From: a virus | Virus record (IMG/VR): IMGVR_UViG_3300003890_000025 | Span: 1-64,000 of that record | DNA length: 64,000 nucleotides | Reading direction: 5' to 3' (one strand) | In this document: positions 33,467-53,561 of the stretch, piece after piece | How the letters are laid out: every line of letters begins with the position of its first letter | Position numbering within the stretch: position 1 is the first letter of the stretch | The notes under the pieces: model-generated | What the model was told of the DNA's origin: nothing | What the model saw: the letters and a program-made list of their open reading frames with translations, nothing else | Database searches by the model: none | Translations under genes and position numbers: made by a program

Positions 33467-34933
33467 TTACTTATTATTCTTTATAAATAAGCTCTTTATT
33501 GCATCAGCCGTTGAATTTATAACATCGGCACCCTTGTATAAAACAGACCCTGGTATTCTTCCCCAATCGTGTGGATAAGGATTTCTATGATACTGTATGT
33601 TTCTAATTAAATATACTAAACAATCTACTAAATCAAAGTGAGACCCCCTCTCTGTTCTTTCAAAAGTTTTTCTATTTTTAGTCCAAGTAGCCGTATGTAG
33701 CTGATATATAAGCTCTTTACATCTAGGATTAATTATTAATTGCTCAGAGTGTACTTTTAATCTTAACTCATTTATAGCAGTTGCTTTTTCGTCTTTCTTA
33801 GTAGGTATAAATAAAACTCCATGTAACCTATTTAAATCATTAAGAGTAATTAAATCATCATCTGATATTCTAATATAAACAGGCTGAACCTCTAGTGTTT
33901 TTGGATTCACCCACAATTGACTCTCTTTATCTTTTATTTTATTAGCTAATATCTCAGTTGTCATTTCAGTACCATTCAATAATAACTCATCCTCAACTAC
34001 TACTTTATTATTTTTAAAATCGTAGTAAGCGAATAACACACCAGTTTTATCTACAAACCCAAGATCCATTGACGTATAAGCGTCGTAACGCGGAGGTCGA
34101 GGCCACTCTTTAACAATTACAGACTCTTTTTCTTGTGTAAATTCTGGTACAACTGCCCTCTCTTGATTTACAATAAATTTACACATAAACTCACGCTGCC
34201 AAGTATCTGATAACTCTCCTCCAACCTCAGCCTTTAATTCTTCTACGGCCTCTAGTGTTAACCTATTACACATTGGAGGAGGATCGTTTTTTATACTATT
34301 TAAAACGTCGTATATATTCTTAAATAAGTATGAATTATTAGACTTAGCCTCAGCTACTAGGGTAGTATAATAATGCTCTGGTTCAACTGGAGGGGTAGAT
34401 GATATTATTATCTTACCACGAGTAGTTAATGTTTGTGGTAATAGTATATTTTTAATAAGATTTTCTAAATCATCCATAAAACCAGCCTCATCTACTATAC
34501 ATAAATGACTGGTTTGTCCCCTAAGTCTTTCTGCATTACCTTCATCAGTTCCTTCTATTTGAATAGACGATCCATTCTTAAAGGTATAAGATCTATCATG
34601 CCTAATATAACTAGGCCTTAAGTCTGAAGGACAGTCCTTTAATATATCAAACATGGTAGGTATTATAAACCTCTGCGCCATGAACGCTGTAGGACAGGCG
34701 TATCTTACTATAGTACCTGGATCTGATAAGGCTGCTTCTATAGCTATTATTAATAAAGAATATGATTTACCCATTCTTCTTGGGGCAGTTATAACTAGTT
34801 TACGTTGTTTTGATTTCTTATATAGATTATATACGTCTTTTTGAGCAGAGTCTAATTTCCAATGTAATACTCCTCGTCTCCAGAGCTTTTCTATTGCTAA
34901 ATCTTTAGTAGTAACTGCTGTTTTCTTTGTCAT
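33467..34933 (-). CDS. terL: terminase large subunit
   Basis: Walker A APRRMGKS, Walker B CIVDEAG, motif III SSTP, nuclease MDLGFVD and HFDLVD. Confidence 0.93.
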   Translation of the reverse strand: MTKKTAVTTKDLAIEKLWRRGVLHWKLDSAQKDVYNLYKKSKQRKLVITAPRRMGKSYSLLIIAIEAALSDPGTIVRYACPTAFMAQRFIIPTMFDILKDCPSDLRPSYIRHDRSYTFKNGSSIQIEGTDEGNAERLRGQTSHLCIVDEAGFMDDLENLIKNILLPQTLTTRGKIIISSTPPVEPEHYYTTLVAEAKSNNSYLFKNIYDVLNSIKNDPPPMCNRLTLEAVEELKAEVGGELSDTWQREFMCKFIVNQERAVVPEFTQEKESVIVKEWPRPPRYDAYTSMDLGFVDKTGVLFAYYDFKNNKVVVEDELLLNGTEMTTEILANKIKDKESQLWVNPKTLEVQPVYIRISDDDLITLNDLNRLHGVLFIPTKKDEKATAINELRLKVHSEQLIINPRCKELIYQLHTATWTKNRKTFERTERGSHFDLVDCLVYLIRNIQYHRNPYPHDWGRIPGSVLYKGADVINSTADAIKSLFIKNNK

Positions 34934-37602: not shown

Positions 37603-37856
37603 TGAAAAAAAGATATAAAAACAGAAAAAGAATAGAAAAAATGGCAGATAGGCTAGAAATGGCTGATATAACCAATAATGTATTAGTCCCAAACCCCATA
37701 ACTGGAGAAAAGGTTTATAAACTAGTCAATAATAGACGTAGACTAGTAAAAGGTATTCTAGCCTTACCTTTAGAAGAACAAGAGCGTAGACTAAATGAAA
37801 TGGAGCTAAGACTTAATAACTTGGAGAATAATAAAAATGATCCTAACAGCATCTGA
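37602..37856 (+). CDS. hypothetical protein
   Basis: AGGAG RBS; coupled to the upstream gene. Confidence 0.55.
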   Translation: MKKRYKNRKRIEKMADRLEMADITNNVLVPNPITGEKVYKLVNNRRRLVKGILALPLEEQERRLNEMELRLNNLENNKNDPNSI

Positions 37857-38373
37857 AATACTAAAGCGTCTTGATAAGGATATAATTATAACTCCGTTTA
37901 ACGTAAAACACTTAGCAGTAAATTCAGTAGACCTAACCTTAGATAAGACTTTAAAGGTCTATACAACGCCTGTATTAGACTTTAAGAAGGCTAATACTAC
38001 CATGGATATGGTTATACCAGAAGACGGTCTAGTTTTACAACCTGGTAGGGTTTATTTAGGTCAGACCGTTGAATATACAGAAACCAATAATCTAGTACCT
38101 GTGCTATATGGTAAATCTAGTACGGGTAGGCTAGGTTTATTCGTTCACGTAACAGCGGGTTTTGGTGATATAGGCTATAAAGGTACTTGGACTCTGGAAT
38201 TAGTAGCTACACAGCCAGTTAAAGTATACCCTAATATGAAAGTATGTCAAATTATCTACCACACTATTGAAGGTTCATCACTTAAGAAATATAAAGGTAA
38301 ATATCAAGGAGCTAGAGAAGTTATAGCTAGTAAGTCATTTGAAGATTTTAATTCTGATACTGATAAAAAGTGA
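37837..38373 (+). CDS. dcd: dCTP deaminase
   Basis: SVDLTL, GKSSTGRLG, AGFGD.GYKG.WTLE, GKYQG. Confidence 0.9.
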   Translation: MILTASEILKRLDKDIIITPFNVKHLAVNSVDLTLDKTLKVYTTPVLDFKKANTTMDMVIPEDGLVLQPGRVYLGQTVEYTETNNLVPVLYGKSSTGRLGLFVHVTAGFGDIGYKGTWTLELVATQPVKVYPNMKVCQIIYHTIEGSSLKKYKGKYQGAREVIASKSFEDFNSDTDKK

Positions 38374-40643: not shown

Positions 40644-41212
40644 AACTCATAGCTATAGACCTAGAGCTTAATAACCCTAAAACTAATCAATCTATAATCC
40701 AAATAGGTGCAGTGGTAGGAGATTTAAATTTAAAAACTATTATTGAGGAATATAAAGCCAATATTCGACTACCTGAAGGTGAACTACTACAGGACTATAT
40801 TAGTAATTTAACTAATATCAAGCCCCAAGAAGTAGAAGGTAACGGATTAAGTCTAAAAGAGGCTGTAAAAGACCTCCATAACCTAGTCACTAAATACGAC
40901 TGTTTAAAATCGCCTATAACGTGGGGTGGAGGTGACTTGCCACTCTTACGTCAAAAGTACCTAGAATCTCTCAATGGTGAGCCTTTAAACACGTTTAATT
41001 GGCCTTTTGGTTGGAGGGAGCTGGACGTAAAAACAGTCTACCAGACTAGGTGTTTAGCTTTAGGCCTAAAACCACAGGGGTCTTTAGCTAAAAGTATGAC
41101 TAAACTAGGCCTGAGGTTTCAGGGGACTAAGCATAACGCATTAGATGACGCTAAGAATACTTTATTATTATATTATAAGTTATTGGAGGATTATAAAATT
41201 AGATTATGTTAA
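40640..41212 (+). CDS. DEDDh 3'-5' exonuclease (ERI-1/KapD-like)
   Basis: IDLE, WG..D, HNALDDA. Confidence 0.88.
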   Translation: MKLIAIDLELNNPKTNQSIIQIGAVVGDLNLKTIIEEYKANIRLPEGELLQDYISNLTNIKPQEVEGNGLSLKEAVKDLHNLVTKYDCLKSPITWGGGDLPLLRQKYLESLNGEPLNTFNWPFGWRELDVKTVYQTRCLALGLKPQGSLAKSMTKLGLRFQGTKHNALDDAKNTLLLYYKLLEDYKIRLC

Positions 41213-41607
41213 ACTTTAAAATTCAATCTTTTATAAATATAGTTTTAATTTTTATTCTTATTAATCTTAATCAACACTGTAATAACACTGATAAAACACC
41301 GATAAAGCCACCAACGACAGAACCCAGTCCTACTCCAGAGCCTAAGCCTGAAGAAAATTTAGTAGCTAAAGGTAAAGCTATTTACCGTAGAAACTGTATT
41401 AGTTGTCATAATATTAACCCTAAGTTAGTTGGTTCTGTAGGGCCTGATTTATACGGGTCTAGCTTAGATTTATTAAGGTCTAAAGTTATATATGGAACTT
41501 ACCCAAAAGGCTATAAACCTAAACGTAATACTAAAATAATGCCTAAGTTCCCTAGTCTTGAACCTAATATAGAGGCTATAAAAGAGTTTCTAAATTCTGA
41601 TTTATAG
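41206..41607 (+). CDS. membrane-anchored class I c-type cytochrome
   Basis: GKAIY...CISCH haem motif, GPDL, distal Met in IMPKF; N-terminal anchor and Pro linker. Confidence 0.85.
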   Translation: MLNFKIQSFINIVLIFILINLNQHCNNTDKTPIKPPTTEPSPTPEPKPEENLVAKGKAIYRRNCISCHNINPKLVGSVGPDLYGSSLDLLRSKVIYGTYPKGYKPKRNTKIMPKFPSLEPNIEAIKEFLNSDL

Positions 41608-42258: not shown

Positions 42259-43158
42259 CTAATCATCATTAGTACTATCAAATGTTGAGTAATAGTCTTC
42301 ATTTTCTTCTTCATCTTCCTTTGTATAATTTTTTAATCTTTCTATAGCTTCTTCTAACACTAAATCAAAACATTTAACACTTATAATTAAATCCTTTATT
42401 TTATCTATAGTAAAATTATGTGTCTTAGTTACCCATTTGCTTAACTCTGTTTCGCTAATATCAGGCATTTTATGCTTTAAATAAGCTTCTCTAGCTTTTT
42501 CTGTTAAAGGACCTATTTCTATAACAGTAGCGAACCTACTAGGTCTACTAACTAAATTCTTAGGTATACGGTCTATATAGTTAGTAGTAGCTATATATAC
42601 TACGTTATCTAGTTGTAATTCACCGTCTAATAGAGCTAAAAACCTACTATTATTAACGTAATAATGGAAATCCTCCCAAATAACTACTATAGTTAGACTA
42701 GGTTGAACTATTCTGAGTTTAGTTATTAAGTTATAAAAATTATCAGGGTCAGGACTTAAAATACAAATACCTCCATTGTCAATAACAGTATTAGCTACTT
42801 TTAGTAGACATGAAGTCTTACCAGACCCCGCTGGGCCGTACATTAATATACCCCTTTTATATAGCATGCCGTATTGTTTATACTTTTCTTTTGTTTCAGG
42901 TCTAAAAAATTTATTTATCTCATTTATAACTTTATGAGATTGTGAATCAGGTAAGTCTAATAATTCTTCAGTCTGTATAGTTTTAGGACCCAAATGTAAC
43001 CCTATATGAGGTTTCTCCAATACCTCGTATACCCCTGGAGGTATTACCTCAGTAAATAAAGGCTTATTAGTAGGTGTTATATTACCACTAGGACTAATTG
43101 AAAACTCTGTATAAGTCTCTTTAATTAGTTTTACTTTATTTTTATTAAAAATACTCAT
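42259..43158 (-). CDS. AAA+ ATPase (BCS1/FtsH-like AAA module)
   Basis: RGILMYGPAGSGKT, Walker B VVIWED, ATTNY, SRPSRF arginine finger. Confidence 0.88.
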   Translation of the reverse strand: MSIFNKNKVKLIKETYTEFSISPSGNITPTNKPLFTEVIPPGVYEVLEKPHIGLHLGPKTIQTEELLDLPDSQSHKVINEINKFFRPETKEKYKQYGMLYKRGILMYGPAGSGKTSCLLKVANTVIDNGGICILSPDPDNFYNLITKLRIVQPSLTIVVIWEDFHYYVNNSRFLALLDGELQLDNVVYIATTNYIDRIPKNLVSRPSRFATVIEIGPLTEKAREAYLKHKMPDISETELSKWVTKTHNFTIDKIKDLIISVKCFDLVLEEAIERLKNYTKEDEEENEDYYSTFDSTNDD

Positions 43159-43211: not shown

Positions 43212-43490
43212 CTACTGTATTTTAATATATTTAGGACACCACTCACTGTGGTAGTTACTCCGTATACTAGCAGCACCACATTCACATTTTACTTCACCCT
43301 TATTAAAATATAAACTGTAATTAGCTTTAAGGTCACTAAAACTAACTAATTTAGTACTTTTAAAGTAAGTCCTATTACCAGTTATAGTAACGTAATCAGT
43401 AGAGTAGTCTATTTTATCAACTACCCAAGCATCACCTACTGAGTCATATATAATACTACCTACTCTAATTTCATAAAGGTTAATTGCCAT
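43212..43490 (-). CDS. hypothetical protein with C-terminal CECG...H...C zinc motif
   Basis: Motif visible; late-promoter motif upstream. Confidence 0.55.
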   Translation of the reverse strand: MAINLYEIRVGSIIYDSVGDAWVVDKIDYSTDYVTITGNRTYFKSTKLVSFSDLKANYSLYFNKGEVKCECGAASIRSNYHSEWCPKYIKIQ

Positions 43491-43934
43491 TACGTAAATA
43501 TTTGTTTTACGTTTACTAGCACTTTAAACCTAGTTACTCAATTATAAACTAACCTACTCTACTTACTTATATAACTTACAAAATAACCTAATCCATAACT
43601 AGTTATTTATTAGCTAGTACTAAGTCTATTAGTTACTCAATATAATTTAAAACCTTACCACCTAGTACTAGTCTTAGACCTAATACTAAACTTAGCTTTA
43701 AACGCTTTTAAAAGCTCTATAAGCTTTTTAAATAGGTGTACGTGTAGGGTAGTAGCCTAACACTAGTCTAAACTCTTATAAAGGCTTTAAAACAGTTATA
43801 GCTAGTATAGTCTATTTATAGTTACTCGTTGGTTAGGTTAGCTGCTGGGAGGTTACTCGGGTGGAGGAGGGGAGAGTGAGTGTGTGGGAAGCCCCCGACC
43901 GAGCCCCCTCGACGTCCCCTGGGGGGAGGGGGGT
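43491..43934. other. non-coding strand-switch region: putative genome terminus/pac or origin
   Basis: No ORFs; GTTACTC repeats; G-run island at 43845-43933; genes diverge on either side. Confidence 0.45.
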
Positions 43935-44067
43935 TGCAATAATCATGCCAAAATGTTAGGCATGACTTTTGCTACTGCAATAATCGTGCCAGTTAATTGG
44001 CATAGTTCTTGCTATAGCAATTATAATGCCTAAGAATAGCTGTTGGTCCATTGGCCCATTTCTTGCT
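43935..44067. promoter_or_regulatory. array of six sigma54 -24/-12 boxes in alternating orientation
   Basis: Each matches WGGC-N7-TTGCW with exact GG-N10-GC spacing. Confidence 0.8.
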
Positions 44068-44120
44068 AATGACCCATATATATATTTATATAAGTTTAAA
44101 TTATTAATTTATTTATAAAG

Positions 44121-44263
44121 TGTTTAAACTTTAGACAGAGTGTCTAAAAGTTAATAGCTTAATAATAATCCATAGTTAGCTTAAACTGTCTAAAAGTTAG
44201 TCTAGTTTTTAAAATAGCTAGGTCTGTTTTATCAAGGACTTAGCTAGTGGCACAGGCTATGCA
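44121..44263 (+). promoter_or_regulatory. sigma54 promoter with IHF site and enhancer-like repeats
   Basis: TGGCACAGGCTATGCA 44248-44263; TATCAAGGACTTA 44230-44242 matches WATCAANNNNTTR; TGTCTAAAAGTTA repeats upstream. Confidence 0.7.
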
Positions 44264-44308
44264 TTAGTTAAAGTGTAGACTGAACGGTTACTAAAGAGAG
44301 GTGTTAAT

Positions 44309-44530
44309 ATGCTTTCTATGTTTATTGAAGAATATCAAGACCTATCGACAGGGGATTGGTATAGAGCTTACGTAGACGTATGGTCTAATAGACTAGGCTA
44401 TAAAGAGCTAGACGTTAGTAGCGTGGAGAAGTATATACACGGTATGTGGGTTAGGGTGTTAGAAGTACCTGACCACGTTAAAGACGGGCTCTTAGAGACT
44501 GCCGTATTTAAATATGAAAATAGAGTTTAG
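44309..44530 (+). CDS. early hypothetical protein
   Basis: GAGGTG RBS. Confidence 0.6.
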   Translation: MLSMFIEEYQDLSTGDWYRAYVDVWSNRLGYKELDVSSVEKYIHGMWVRVLEVPDHVKDGLLETAVFKYENRV

Positions 44531-46079: not shown

Positions 46080-47372
46080 ATGAATAATAATAATAATAAT
46101 GATTTAGATAGAATAGTGGTTGGTGATCGAGTATATTTAGAAAACAAAATCGGTCTAGAAGAACGACTCATAGAACATTTAACGCGAAGTGATTATTTAA
46201 TTGTAACTGATATCAGAAATAACCTTTGCGATATAGTTACCCCGAACGGGACAAAAATAAACATTTTATTTTTACACAGATTTAAAAAAATACCTTCACT
46301 TAAAATTAATGAAGATACAAAAATTGTGTTAGAAAACAATAGGTTAAAATTAATTACTAATAAAGAACACCTTTCAAGAAAAATTAACAAAAAACAGCAA
46401 CTATTAATTAATGATTCGTTAAAGTATGGAAATAATTATGCTTTATCATTTTTTGGTCATAAATTAATAAATCAAACATGGAAGATACTTATAGATAAAT
46501 ACAAAGATAAATCCGTTCTAAATAATATACCTCTAGCTACAGATGTAGAGGTACCTCCTATCTGCTACAGACCAACTAACGTCTTTTTATCTTTACAAAA
46601 GACGCTATACAATCCGCTCAGTGAAAAAAGACCGATTGGAAAGGATTTTGGACGTTACTTTGGAGTAGAAATCGAATGTTTCATACCTAATAAAAACTTC
46701 GACCAAATAGCTGAATTGTTAAGATCAAATAAAATAAAGAACGTCTCTCTTGCCAGAGATGGTTCTTTAAGCATTGACAAAGATTATTGGACTCCTGTCG
46801 AATTCAGAGTTTTAACAAAAATAAATGATTTTAATAATTTAGAAAAGTTATTGGATTTATTAAACTCTTGGGGTGCAGAGGTCAATAGTACTTGCGGGCT
46901 ACACGTGCACCTAGATATGAGGCACCTAAAAAGTAAAGTCTCGGTTAAGAAGAGAGCTGAAAAATTGTTAAAATTTTTACCAATGCTCAAGGCGATGGTA
47001 CCTAAAAGTCGTATTGAAAACGAATTCTGTAAACTTGATATAAGCAGTTTTGGAAATAGGTACGCAGCTATAAACCTGGAATCTTTTAAAAAACATAAAA
47101 CCATTGAAGTACGACTTCACAGTGGGACTATTGATAAAACCAAAATCATTAACTGGTGCAAGTTATTGTATATTATAATTAATTCAAAAATTGATAAATT
47201 TTATGATTTTGATTATAACATCACGAAAGCTTGTAAAATGTTAAAATTAAGTCAAGAATTGGAATTTTATGTTCGTTCTAGAATCCGAAAATTCAAGCCA
47301 ATTCTTTTAGAAGTAGACCAGTTAAAAAATCAACCAAATCAGCCAATAGTACAACCTCACAATTCATTATAA
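46080..47372 (+). CDS. putative amidoligase (COOH-NH2 ligase family)
   Basis: FGVEIE, DGSL, CGLHVH, RY.AIN, TIEVRLHSGT. Confidence 0.85.
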   Translation: MNNNNNNDLDRIVVGDRVYLENKIGLEERLIEHLTRSDYLIVTDIRNNLCDIVTPNGTKINILFLHRFKKIPSLKINEDTKIVLENNRLKLITNKEHLSRKINKKQQLLINDSLKYGNNYALSFFGHKLINQTWKILIDKYKDKSVLNNIPLATDVEVPPICYRPTNVFLSLQKTLYNPLSEKRPIGKDFGRYFGVEIECFIPNKNFDQIAELLRSNKIKNVSLARDGSLSIDKDYWTPVEFRVLTKINDFNNLEKLLDLLNSWGAEVNSTCGLHVHLDMRHLKSKVSVKKRAEKLLKFLPMLKAMVPKSRIENEFCKLDISSFGNRYAAINLESFKKHKTIEVRLHSGTIDKTKIINWCKLLYIIINSKIDKFYDFDYNITKACKMLKLSQELEFYVRSRIRKFKPILLEVDQLKNQPNQPIVQPHNSL

Positions 47373-47399
47373 GCCGTTAGAAAGAAAGGACATAAAAAC

Positions 47400-48305
47400 A
47401 TGTGTAAAATTTTTGCAATGTCAAATACTAGTAAGTTAACCAGAAAAAATTTCATAAATTTACTAAGAATAGTTCATCCAATTATAACACATTCTGAAGT
47501 AGATGGTTTTGGGTGGGCAGTTCTAGGTGAATCAGGTATTTACGGAGAAAAATATATCAATCCGACGGAATTTGACTTCAGAATTTTTAATAATGTTAAG
47601 GAAAATAAAATACTAAAAGAATTAATAAAAGAAGAGGCATCTTCATTTGGCCAGGCATCTAAACCGATAGGGCCGCTTTTAATCCACGGCAGAACTAGTA
47701 CAAATGACAAAACATTAACAAACACGCATCCATTTATTAAAAATAATTGGACATTGATTCACAATGGAGTAGTAGATAATCTTGGAGAAACGTATATTAT
47801 GGATTCTACTTGCGATTCGGAGCACCTTATACATTATCTTTCGTCAGGTGGAATAGAATCTATTGAAAAATACGTCAGTGGTTATTACGCCGTGGCAGCT
47901 ATTGACCCTAACGGAAACTTGCATGTATTTAAAGACGACATAGCATCACTCTATGTAGCTTATATAAAAACTATTGATAGCTTTATTTTCTCTACCACAA
48001 AGGACATGATTTCAATAACTTGTAAGAAAATGAAATGGGAATACACAGAAATAAATCCCATGAAAGGTAATTTTTATATGGTTATAAATAAAGAAAATGA
48101 ATTATTATATAGTAGGAAAATAAAACCTTTGAAAGTTTATTACGACTCTACTAGACAAAAAGCGTCAATAGCCTTTAAGGGCAGTGTAGACACAATACTA
48201 TCAGAGTCTATAAATGAAACTCATCACTTAAGTAGATTGTCTTTAAGAGATTTTGAAGACACAGCCTACTACACAACAGACAACTTTAATAAAAATAAAA
48301 CATAG
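47400..48305 (+). CDS. class II (Ntn) glutamine amidotransferase
   Basis: Cys2 (MCKI), DGFG, HGRTST, NTHPF, HNG, DSE. Confidence 0.88.
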   Translation: MCKIFAMSNTSKLTRKNFINLLRIVHPIITHSEVDGFGWAVLGESGIYGEKYINPTEFDFRIFNNVKENKILKELIKEEASSFGQASKPIGPLLIHGRTSTNDKTLTNTHPFIKNNWTLIHNGVVDNLGETYIMDSTCDSEHLIHYLSSGGIESIEKYVSGYYAVAAIDPNGNLHVFKDDIASLYVAYIKTIDSFIFSTTKDMISITCKKMKWEYTEINPMKGNFYMVINKENELLYSRKIKPLKVYYDSTRQKASIAFKGSVDTILSESINETHHLSRLSLRDFEDTAYYTTDNFNKNKT

Positions 48306-52553: not shown

Positions 52554-53561
52554 ATGCTTATACAGTCTATTTTCCTAGACACTTTAACTAGAGAAAGTAA
52601 AGAAGGTTATTTAGATTTAAGGTTTGGTAATCCTGGGTTCTTATTTAAATTTTGGGATATTTACAACGAATCTGTTAACCTTGTATCTAAGGGTAGTAAT
52701 ATGTCATATTTACCTACTCATTTAGAAGCAGAGTTAGAATCTAAAATACTAGAATTGCATAAAAAAACAGGTAATCTACCCACCCATAAGCCGTATGTAG
52801 TATTTGGTAACGGAGCTACACAGCTTATTCATGCTATATTCCTAGTAATGAGAGAATTAGGTATAACTAGAGTTAACTTCGAGCCGCCATACTATCCAAG
52901 ATTTATGTCATTAGCGGAACTTAGTGATCTCAAATACTCTAAAACAGCAACAAAGAATACCTGTGAACTAATTACTAGTCCTAATAACCCTGATTGTCAT
53001 TTAAGCTTACCCAAAGAAAATAAGCCTGATCATCATGTTATATATGACCTAACTTATAATTGGCCACATTATACTGAAACAGTACATAACTATGATAACT
53101 ATATATCAATATACTCATTAGGTAAGTTATCAGGGCACGCTAGTACTAGGATAGGGTGGGCACTGGTACCAGACCCTAAAATAGCTAGTAGAATAGCTTA
53201 TTACGTTGAAATACTGACTAATGGTACTAGTGCAGATGCTATAAAACATGCTATTAGTATAATAGATCATATAAACATTCATCATTCAGAATTTTTCCAA
53301 TTAGGTAAGTCTGAGCTGAATAAAAGATGGATAATAATTAATCAATTACTTAGTAAAAACAATTCTATTAAAATAGAATCCAATTCTGGTATGTTTTTAT
53401 ATGGTAAGTATTTAAATAGTCGTGATTATTGGGATGATAATAAGATACAGGTAGTTAATGGTGACATGCTTGGAGTGTCAAAAGATTACTTTAGAGTAAA
53501 TATAGGTGGTACTATAGAACAGTTTAATGAATTTATAAAAAGAGTGAAAGGATCTTTTTAG
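52554..53561 (+). CDS. PLP-dependent fold-type I aminotransferase, alliinase/TAA1-like
   Basis: GNGATQL, ELITSPNNPD, IYDLTYNWPHYT, SLGKLSGHASTRIGWALV (PLP lysine). Confidence 0.85.
   Translation: MLIQSIFLDTLTRESKEGYLDLRFGNPGFLFKFWDIYNESVNLVSKGSNMSYLPTHLEAELESKILELHKKTGNLPTHKPYVVFGNGATQLIHAIFLVMRELGITRVNFEPPYYPRFMSLAELSDLKYSKTATKNTCELITSPNNPDCHLSLPKENKPDHHVIYDLTYNWPHYTETVHNYDNYISIYSLGKLSGHASTRIGWALVPDPKIASRIAYYVEILTNGTSADAIKHAISIIDHINIHHSEFFQLGKSELNKRWIIINQLLSKNNSIKIESNSGMFLYGKYLNSRDYWDDNKIQVVNGDMLGVSKDYFRVNIGGTIEQFNEFIKRVKGSF

Follow-up and report, generated by a model that had tools for sequence, protein, structure and literature searches.

Among bacterial σ factors, σ54 is the only one whose RNA polymerase binds stably and then remains silent until an ATPase fires it. 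Its consensus is TGGCACG-N4-TTGCW, also written TGGCAC-N5-TTGCW. ChIP mapping in E. coli and Salmonella has located σ54 sites that include transcriptionally inactive and intragenic ones (PMC4591121, PMC3844500), and holoenzyme bound in an inactive state has been documented in E. coli (PMC4591121). Single σ54 sites, silent ones included, are already well known in bacteria. To our knowledge, the use of σ54 by phages is almost unstudied, and a literature search found no paper on arrays of σ54 sites in phages.

Here, we analyze such an array in an uncultured phage, represented by an IMG/VR virus contig of 79,148 bp that is classed as linear and 95% complete; the first 64,000 nucleotides of this record are referred to as the window. 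Like the bacterial sites, the boxes of this array follow the same bipartite motif with rigid spacing, and bacterial holoenzyme can sit on such sites without transcribing. Unlike the bacterial sites, which are single and dispersed, the phage boxes number six to seven, up to 11 in relatives, and are close-packed and bidirectional in a gene-free gap.

Several other described elements invite comparison. The T7 promoters phi1.1A/B with their AT-rich region and T4 oriF/oriG are origins that combine a promoter with an unwinding element, and R-loop priming at G-runs is known from ColE1 and mitochondrial CSB II. The array resembles the T7 and T4 origins in lying between divergent gene arms and in aiming the predicted start of box 6 at a very AT-rich tract, and it resembles the R-loop systems in that the predicted RNA of box 1 carries G-runs. 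In contrast to the T7 and T4 origins, where a phage polymerase or σ70-type promoters fire freely, the array sites would need an ATP-driven activator.

Iterons or DnaA boxes mark the origins of plasmids, phage P1 (oriR) and RK2 (oriV), and the E. coli datA locus titrates DnaA. As in iteron origins, sites of ~16 bp are spaced by about two helical turns, with a GC-rich block on one side and an AT-rich one on the other, and as in DnaA-box loci, tandem perfect DnaA boxes occur inside related modules. Unlike iteron origins, the array consists of a host σ factor motif, has no adjacent Rep gene, and in the source phage no DnaA box is found near it. The alternating short sites and the GC-rich element are also reminiscent of lambda cos (cosN with the R sites of cosB) and of the pac sites of SPP1 and SF6, as is the location of the module upstream of the terminase genes in a podovirus clade. 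Unlike in cos or pac, the motif is common to unrelated terminase systems, the tract rather than the boxes lies nearest the terminase genes, and the array of the source phage is 9 kb away from TerL. For a role in DNA entry or at a terminus, we take the injection-stop region of T5 and the left-end promoter cluster of T7 to be the comparators.

The gap between two divergent gene arms

According to the ORF list, the gap at 43491-44308 divides a leftward from a rightward gene arm, and the six-box array within it, at 43.9 kb of the 79-kb record, lies mid-record. The leftward arm starts with a 92-aa ORF and an AAA ATPase, followed by structural and packaging genes including TerL at 33467-34933; the rightward arm contains small ORFs, an amidoligase, an amidotransferase and others. 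The 92-aa product has no family match in Pfam or PHROG, and no family match was obtained for the 73-aa product that opens the rightward arm. From left to right, the gap contains an AT-rich stretch, a G/C tract, the six boxes and a tract of 92% AT, and further right, in this order, three copies of a 12-13-mer, an IHF-like site and a seventh box (Table 1). Its left part (43500-43830) is dense in short direct and inverted repeats containing CTAG, and similar CTAG-rich words occur in the relative G001.

Table 1. Features of the gap and of the genes that border it (positions in the window).
Feature	Position	Strand	Description
AAA ATPase, next after the 92-aa gene	42259-43158	leftward arm	PF00004; resembles Cdc48/YjoB-like chains, not PF00158
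Leftward arm, gene 1	43212-43490	-	92 aa; from the ORF list
G/C-rich tract	43840-43934		G-runs at 43846-43890; C-runs at 43892-43919 (C5, C5TC, C4)
Mirror repeat G6AG6	43921-43933		abuts box 1
Box 1	43935-43950	-	near-perfect -24/-12, 24.3 bits; faces left
Box 2	43958-43973	+	weak, 14.5 bits; faces right; predicted start in box 3
Box 3	43976-43991	-	near-perfect, 24.7 bits; predicted start in box 2
Box 4	43998-44013	+	near-perfect, 22.9 bits; faces right; predicted start in box 5
Box 5	44016-44031	-	weak, 9.2 bits
Box 6	44052-44067	+	weak, 15.2 bits; faces right
AT-rich tract, candidate DNA-unwinding element	44068-44135		92% AT over 60 bp
12-13-bp word of TGTCTAAAAGTT type, three copies	44125-44199	one inverted, two direct	found by repeat search
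Presumed IHF consensus	44230-44242	+	exact match to WATCAA-N4-TTR; directly upstream of box 7
Box 7	44248-44263	+	15.0 bits; -12 element ATGCA, not TTGCA; found by weight-matrix scan
Rightward arm, gene 1	44309-44530	+	73 aa; ATG at 44309, GAGG ribosome-binding site

The composition on both sides of the boxes is extreme. No 60-mer of the genome is richer in GC than the one (75% GC) that starts at 43878 in the G/C tract, and the 92% AT 60-mer at 44076, directly after box 6, ranks among the top five of the genome for AT. The outermost boxes face outward, into the GC-richest stretch and one of the AT-richest. In layout, an AT-rich candidate unwinding element lies beside repeated sites of a protein-binding type, as in an origin. 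The cumulative GC skew has its minimum at 43-44 kb, which proves nothing alone, because the coding strand switches at the same place.

We considered and rejected other readings of the stretch itself. Protein-coding use of the tract and array is contradicted by the ORFs inside them, which are of only 20-49 aa and mutually overlapping. A structured RNA or DNA was discarded as well, since Rfam gave no credible family in the array (one miRNA match, E = 0.38) and the fold is not better than that of shuffled sequences (z = -1.5); its potential to form hairpins follows from the boxes facing each other. No σ70-type promoter for either arm was detected within the gap. The facing pairs contain σ70-like combinations in the window (TTGGCA-16-AATTAT type), but their middle bases are not conserved in other arrays, and these matches are local coincidence at best.

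Geometry and scores of the boxes

Re-reading of the sequence and a pattern scan placed all six 16-mers of the initial annotation at the positions and on the strands it had given. It had also ascribed exact -24/-12 geometry to all six. With respect to spacing this holds, as GG at -24 and GC at -12 are separated by 10 bp in the six boxes and in box 7; with respect to the extended consensus, boxes 1, 3 and 4 are near-perfect and boxes 2, 5 and 6 are weak, deviating at one or two positions. Neighboring boxes are offset by 23, 18, 22, 18 and 36 bp. Measured along one strand, the minus-strand boxes are 41 and then 40 bp apart and the plus-strand boxes 40 and then 54 bp. Pairs 2/3 and 4/5 stand head-to-head with an offset of 18 bp each. 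This head-to-head offset of 18-19 bp was found again in other phages, and no head-to-head pair (18-21 bp) turned up in 401 bacterial genomes, all from one phylum.

The array lies far above chance expectation. The pattern GGC-N7-TTGC occurs eight times in the window compared to 2.56 ± 1.47 times in 100 dinucleotide shuffles of it, none of which reached eight. The complete 79,148-bp genome contains 10 occurrences, six of them within 133 bp. In a genome-wide scan with a weight matrix, all sites of at least 14 bits were confined to 43935-44263.

σ54-dependent transcription starts 19 bp from the center of the motif (PMC4591121), and we applied this rule to predict start positions for all boxes. For box 1, the predicted start is near 43924, within the G6AG6 tract, so that an RNA fired from it into the G/C tract would carry G4-G5 runs; for box 6 it is near 44078, in the first bases of the AT-rich tract. 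Boxes 2-5 have no gene downstream in the same direction, and their predicted starts fall in the facing boxes. Neighboring sites had been judged too close for all to fire, and the predicted starts bear this out: those of the inner pairs lie within each other, and therefore not all boxes can be productive promoters.

Box 7 ends 46 nt before the ATG at 44309 and has its predicted start near 44274, which leaves a leader of 35 nt as compared to ~430 nt for box 1 and ~230 nt for box 6. By these predictions, it is the sole box positioned like a normal promoter. The earlier statement that no ORF follows any box accordingly applies to the six boxes and does not extend to the region as a whole. The IHF-like site, whose pattern we take to be the IHF consensus, lies unusually near the -24 element of box 7. 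Upstream of both, the TGTCTAAAAGTT-type words (an inverted copy at 44125-44137 and direct copies at 44141-44153 and 44187-44199) are candidate activator-binding sites, ~60-120 bp upstream of box 7. Such candidate sites are evident only beside box 7 and not within the array.

Motif identity and conservation in related phages

We examined the motif in related arrays only at positions that the searches had left free, the arrays having been collected with a 16-mer seed and with a tract-plus-box pattern. In the resulting sets of 85 and 207 distinct boxes, GG is preceded by T in 91-96%; GGC is followed by A (96%), Y (97%) and R (96-97%), and TTGC by W (A or T) in 94%. The spacer in these arrays is N5 in 317 cases, with one N4 and one N6, and 91% of the TGGCAY half-sites are paired with TTGC at the N5 spacing. 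Across 13 aligned related arrays, the box cores are invariant, whereas middle bases and spacers vary and whole boxes are gained or lost. The initial annotation had conceded that palindromes conserved without the GG-N10-GC spacing would speak against its reading; it is the spacing that is strictly kept. A dimeric repressor site is unlikely because the motif is asymmetric. At the level of sequence, the fit of the free positions to the RpoN consensus and the retention of boxes in distant relatives support the original designation of these elements as σ54 boxes, and likewise the view that they are σ54-type sites under selection. The comparisons thus establish, as far as sequence can, the identity of the motif, the selection acting on it and the architecture of the array, with no reader or activator found to be encoded by the phage.

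A search with TerL identified 22 viral loci with 35-58% identity, from a family whose GC content ranges from 31 to 44%. Distant relatives (TerL identity 40-55%) keep two to five boxes in alternating directions, beside runs of G or C and 4-7 kb upstream of TerL; the initial annotation had proposed such a look at related genomes. Six box-bearing relatives were scanned over the whole record (G003, G004, G005 and three shorter contigs); they have 31-40% GC, and their flanks do not align. The closest relatives, G001 and G002 (56% TerL identity), have no array and instead carry, at the corresponding position, just one box together with long C-runs, so the array is dispensable in that lineage. In G001, runs of C9 and C11 lie at 560-720 and 1440-1530 of locus L119 along with repeats of TAGGCATAGC words and a single good box, and this region may be a decayed module or an alternative form of it.

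Neither the activator domain PF00158 nor the σ54 DNA-binding domain PF04552 matched in the phage and four of its relatives; the controls did match. The neighboring AAA ATPase was considered as the activator and rejected, being a classic AAA protein rather than a PF00158 protein and present in the array-less relative as well. Nor is there a phage gene that is common to the array-bearing relatives and missing from the array-less one. Without a phage reader or co-varying gene, a conserved host factor is the simplest reader of the boxes.

Boxes of this type also occur in other arrangements. In addition to a cluster of three boxes, relative G005 contains another seven TGGCA-N6-TTGCA boxes (14-26 bits) at 16.3-28.2 kb (L172, L190); all but one of the seven are on the sense strand and most are inside ORFs, with none in the backwards control, and they are possible intragenic σ54 sites. 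In a 223-kb viral contig, three to four triplets or pairs of boxes at L023 7040-8960 have the minus/plus/minus geometry of the window with offsets of 22 and 18 bp, each group being bracketed by copies of the GTTTTGCCC and GGGCAAAAC words. This looks like a different cassette made from the same boxes in a jumbo phage.

A composite module of mirror tract and boxes

In the relatives and in many unrelated contigs, a C5TC5 (or G5AG5) mirror tract lies beside the boxes. We therefore searched IMG/VR viral contigs for a composite of C4TC4, 5-35 nt and a box on the same strand, and found it in at least 120 contigs, compared to 21 with the tract flipped (about chance level) and 55 with the box flipped. 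The module is ~150-400 bp long. Among the 119 loci of the matches listed, 92 have at least two boxes and 70 at least three, the range being 1 to 11, and in all loci except one the boxes are confined to a single side of the tract. Among the matches listed, 82 loci, all of podovirus type, bear TerL; in each of the 82, this gene is on the tract side, reads away from the module and starts 0.7-2.4 kb from it. The source phage has the same order and polarity relative to TerL at a larger distance (9 kb).

Module-bearing contigs have genes for a T7-type primase-helicase, a family-A polymerase and an exonuclease, and no phage RNA polymerase was seen in the contig pieces examined. By eye, consensus σ70-type promoters for both arms are found outside the module in four loci of the podovirus clade (L007, L067, L061, L099), and this clade may express its genes without need of the boxes.

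Inside the module, exact DnaA boxes show a 76-fold enrichment (42 in 64 kb vs. 7 in 807 kb). They are present in 24 of the 105 distinct modules among the matches listed, usually as a tandem pair 11 bp apart. In the source phage, there is no DnaA box within one mismatch near the array. Strain variants of a podovirus module (L283, L293, L300 and the left end of G014) differ by one insertion that carries two extra boxes together with two tandem perfect DnaA boxes, which shows that host-factor sites have been gained or lost very recently.

Host indications and gene content

The phage genome carries no tRNAs. Its cytochrome c and lytic transglycosylase are weak hints at a Gram-negative host. Of the ORFs, 59% are preceded by a Shine-Dalgarno motif, as compared to 19% in a control window; this hints, in spite of two MAG bins, that the host is not one of the Bacteroidota, and the MAG bins are mixed. 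The best match of TerL in a cultured phage is that of a Silvanigrella phage (27%), and together with the look-alikes of the cytochrome this gives a weak hint that the host possibly belongs to the Bdellovibrionota. The 133-aa cytochrome c (41206-41607; PF00034/PF13442) has its look-alikes most commonly in Bdellovibrionota, and only two homologues (47-48% identity) were found among 5.8 billion proteins. In a Bacteroidales MAG of 4.7 Mb (G006), GGCAY-N6-TTGC, a pattern with a 6-nt spacer on which no conclusion here rests, occurs 112 times compared to 22 in the backwards control, an excess that may be compositional.

Near-identical relatives were found neither in the cultured phage collection nor, with the AAA ATPase, among viral contigs, and no DNA match to a related array was obtained among cultured phages. 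Among cultured phages, those of Pelagibacter, Roseobacter and Silvanigrella are nearest to the module-bearing clades; they have no arrays, and this absence is uninformative about the host.

An amidoligase (PF12224) followed by a glutamine amidotransferase (GATase_6/7) occupies 46080-48305, and elsewhere in the genome there are a dCTP-deaminase-like gene (37837-38373), ThyX, a dNMP kinase and two DNA methylases; together, all these genes look like a set for DNA base hypermodification. The product of 52554-53561 strongly matches the alliinase C-terminal / class I-II aminotransferase fold (E = 7.5e-52), an unusual finding for a phage. A 935-aa class II ribonucleotide reductase-like protein with an inserted LAGLIDADG-domain intein (L175 4745-7552, minus strand; genome 68745-71552) is shared only with relative G005, at 51% identity.

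Possible roles of the array

Because the motif is of RpoN type and under selection and no phage reader was found, it is probable that σ54 holoenzyme binds the array sites. That at least the outer boxes also start RNA is close to an even question, leaning slightly towards no, and a service of this RNA in replication appears doubtful. Our leading hypothesis, which we propose tentatively and with less than even confidence, combines these elements: the array would be a docking hub for host σ54 polymerase, with outer sites that fire outward to drive expression and possibly to prime replication. The holoenzyme would dock as a silent closed complex, for which no activator is required, and the outward sites (box 1 to the left, boxes 6 and 7 to the right) would become productive once a host enhancer-binding protein acts. 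The inner pairs 2/3 and 4/5 would never be both occupied or read through and would instead provide extra landing sites that hold or limit polymerase. With box 1 directed into the GC-richest tract and box 6 into the AT tract, the transcripts might open or prime a bidirectional replication start. The boxes are the core of a conserved non-coding module, variable among strains, that comprises a G/C mirror tract, the boxes and, in some relatives, DnaA boxes and lies between the packaging and structural arm and the other arm. We propose the replication role because of the succession of GC tract, array and AT tract, the DnaA boxes of the relatives, the G-rich RNA, which in every member of the family is predicted to run toward the terminase side, and the skew minimum. 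Since closed complexes do not melt DNA, any origin role requires an activator.

A second possibility, which we regard as rather unlikely, is that the modules only park host σ54 polymerase, and sometimes DnaA, without any activator and serve as an architectural or titrating device. In this reading, the parked enzyme would not serve to transcribe genes but would make up a DNA-encoded σ factor trap, a complex that marks an origin or landmark, or a switch from one genome arm to the other, with C5TC5 as an obligatory partner.

The boxes could also be read by a phage protein, either a small terminase subunit at a pac- or cosB-like site or an initiator binding iterons, so that the likeness to RpoN sites would be coincidence or mimicry. 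Several observations favor this idea: in the podovirus clade, the module is found next to a putative small-subunit gene upstream of TerL throughout the 82 loci listed, an AT-hook is present in one clade's putative small subunit, each genome has only one cluster, and the ~20-bp spacing within a succession of GC tract, repeats and AT tract is shared with iteron origins and lambda cosB. In the source phage, this adjacency is not seen: the packaging operon begins ~6.5 kb away from the array, with TerL more distant still, and no initiator family was found in the genes next to it. The same asymmetric 16-bp motif, with its rigid N5 spacing and flanks of RpoN type, recurs in groups whose TerL proteins are only ~22-27% identical and in a 223-kb phage, whereas small terminase subunits and initiators are not common to these groups, and no gene co-varies with the presence of the array. 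We therefore consider a phage-encoded reader improbable.

The initial annotation had offered a decoy as a candidate. In the pure form of this idea, the boxes would never fire and the replicating genome would soak up scarce σ54, and DnaA in some relatives, thereby silencing the host σ54 regulons for psp, rtc, flagella and nitrogen control. Holoenzyme that stays stably bound without an activator (PMC4591121) is what such a mechanism would use. Close-packed sites in both directions without genes to serve, the lack of an activator gene in the phage and the DnaA boxes embedded in some of the modules listed would all be expected of a decoy, and a box number that ranges from 1 to 11 as entire boxes come and go, each of them consensus, fits a function in dosage or avidity. 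But a mere sponge would have no need of a fixed place, of a polarity relative to the terminase arm or of an attached C5TC5 tract, all of which are conserved; relatives manage with two or three sites and the closest with none, titration would become effective only late, at high copy number, the outer boxes aim at tracts of special composition, and box 7 resembles a working promoter. As the sole purpose of the array, a decoy that would silence these regulons thus appears to have little probability.

Finally, it is very unlikely that the module marks the DNA end that enters first, with bound σ54 polymerase or DnaA to anchor, pause or protect the DNA: on a circular map the module does lie where the ends of two inward-reading arms would join, and arrays contain more ends of whole contigs than expected (10 vs. 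~3, with none on the other side of the tract), but this excess arises because assembly breaks at a strain-variable repeat, and the array is mid-contig in the source phage as well as in G003, a linear and complete relative. Two complete linear contigs do end within 350 bp of a module. One of them carries two diverged copies of the stretch from module to terminase at its ends, one copy lacking DnaA boxes, and in the other the array runs on from the right end into the left end. With strain variation and repeats explaining the excess of contig ends, we reject these ends as evidence of physical termini, and the placement of the array at the phage genome end is not supported.

Implications

New in this work are the oriented composite of mirror tract and boxes, its fixed relation to the terminase arm and the enrichment of DnaA boxes within it, together with the strict spacer statistics, the variability at the strain level and the rejection of the argument from contig ends. 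A short module with an exact motif in at least 120 IMG/VR viral contigs poses a question that becomes directly testable with a carrier phage in culture or the fragment in a model host, and the attached C5TC5 tract and the DnaA boxes provide further handles for mutagenesis. If true, a conserved, oriented and phage-specific module of σ54 sites, whether it acts as a set of regulated start points, an origin or a trap, would represent a new viral route to the host transcription machinery.
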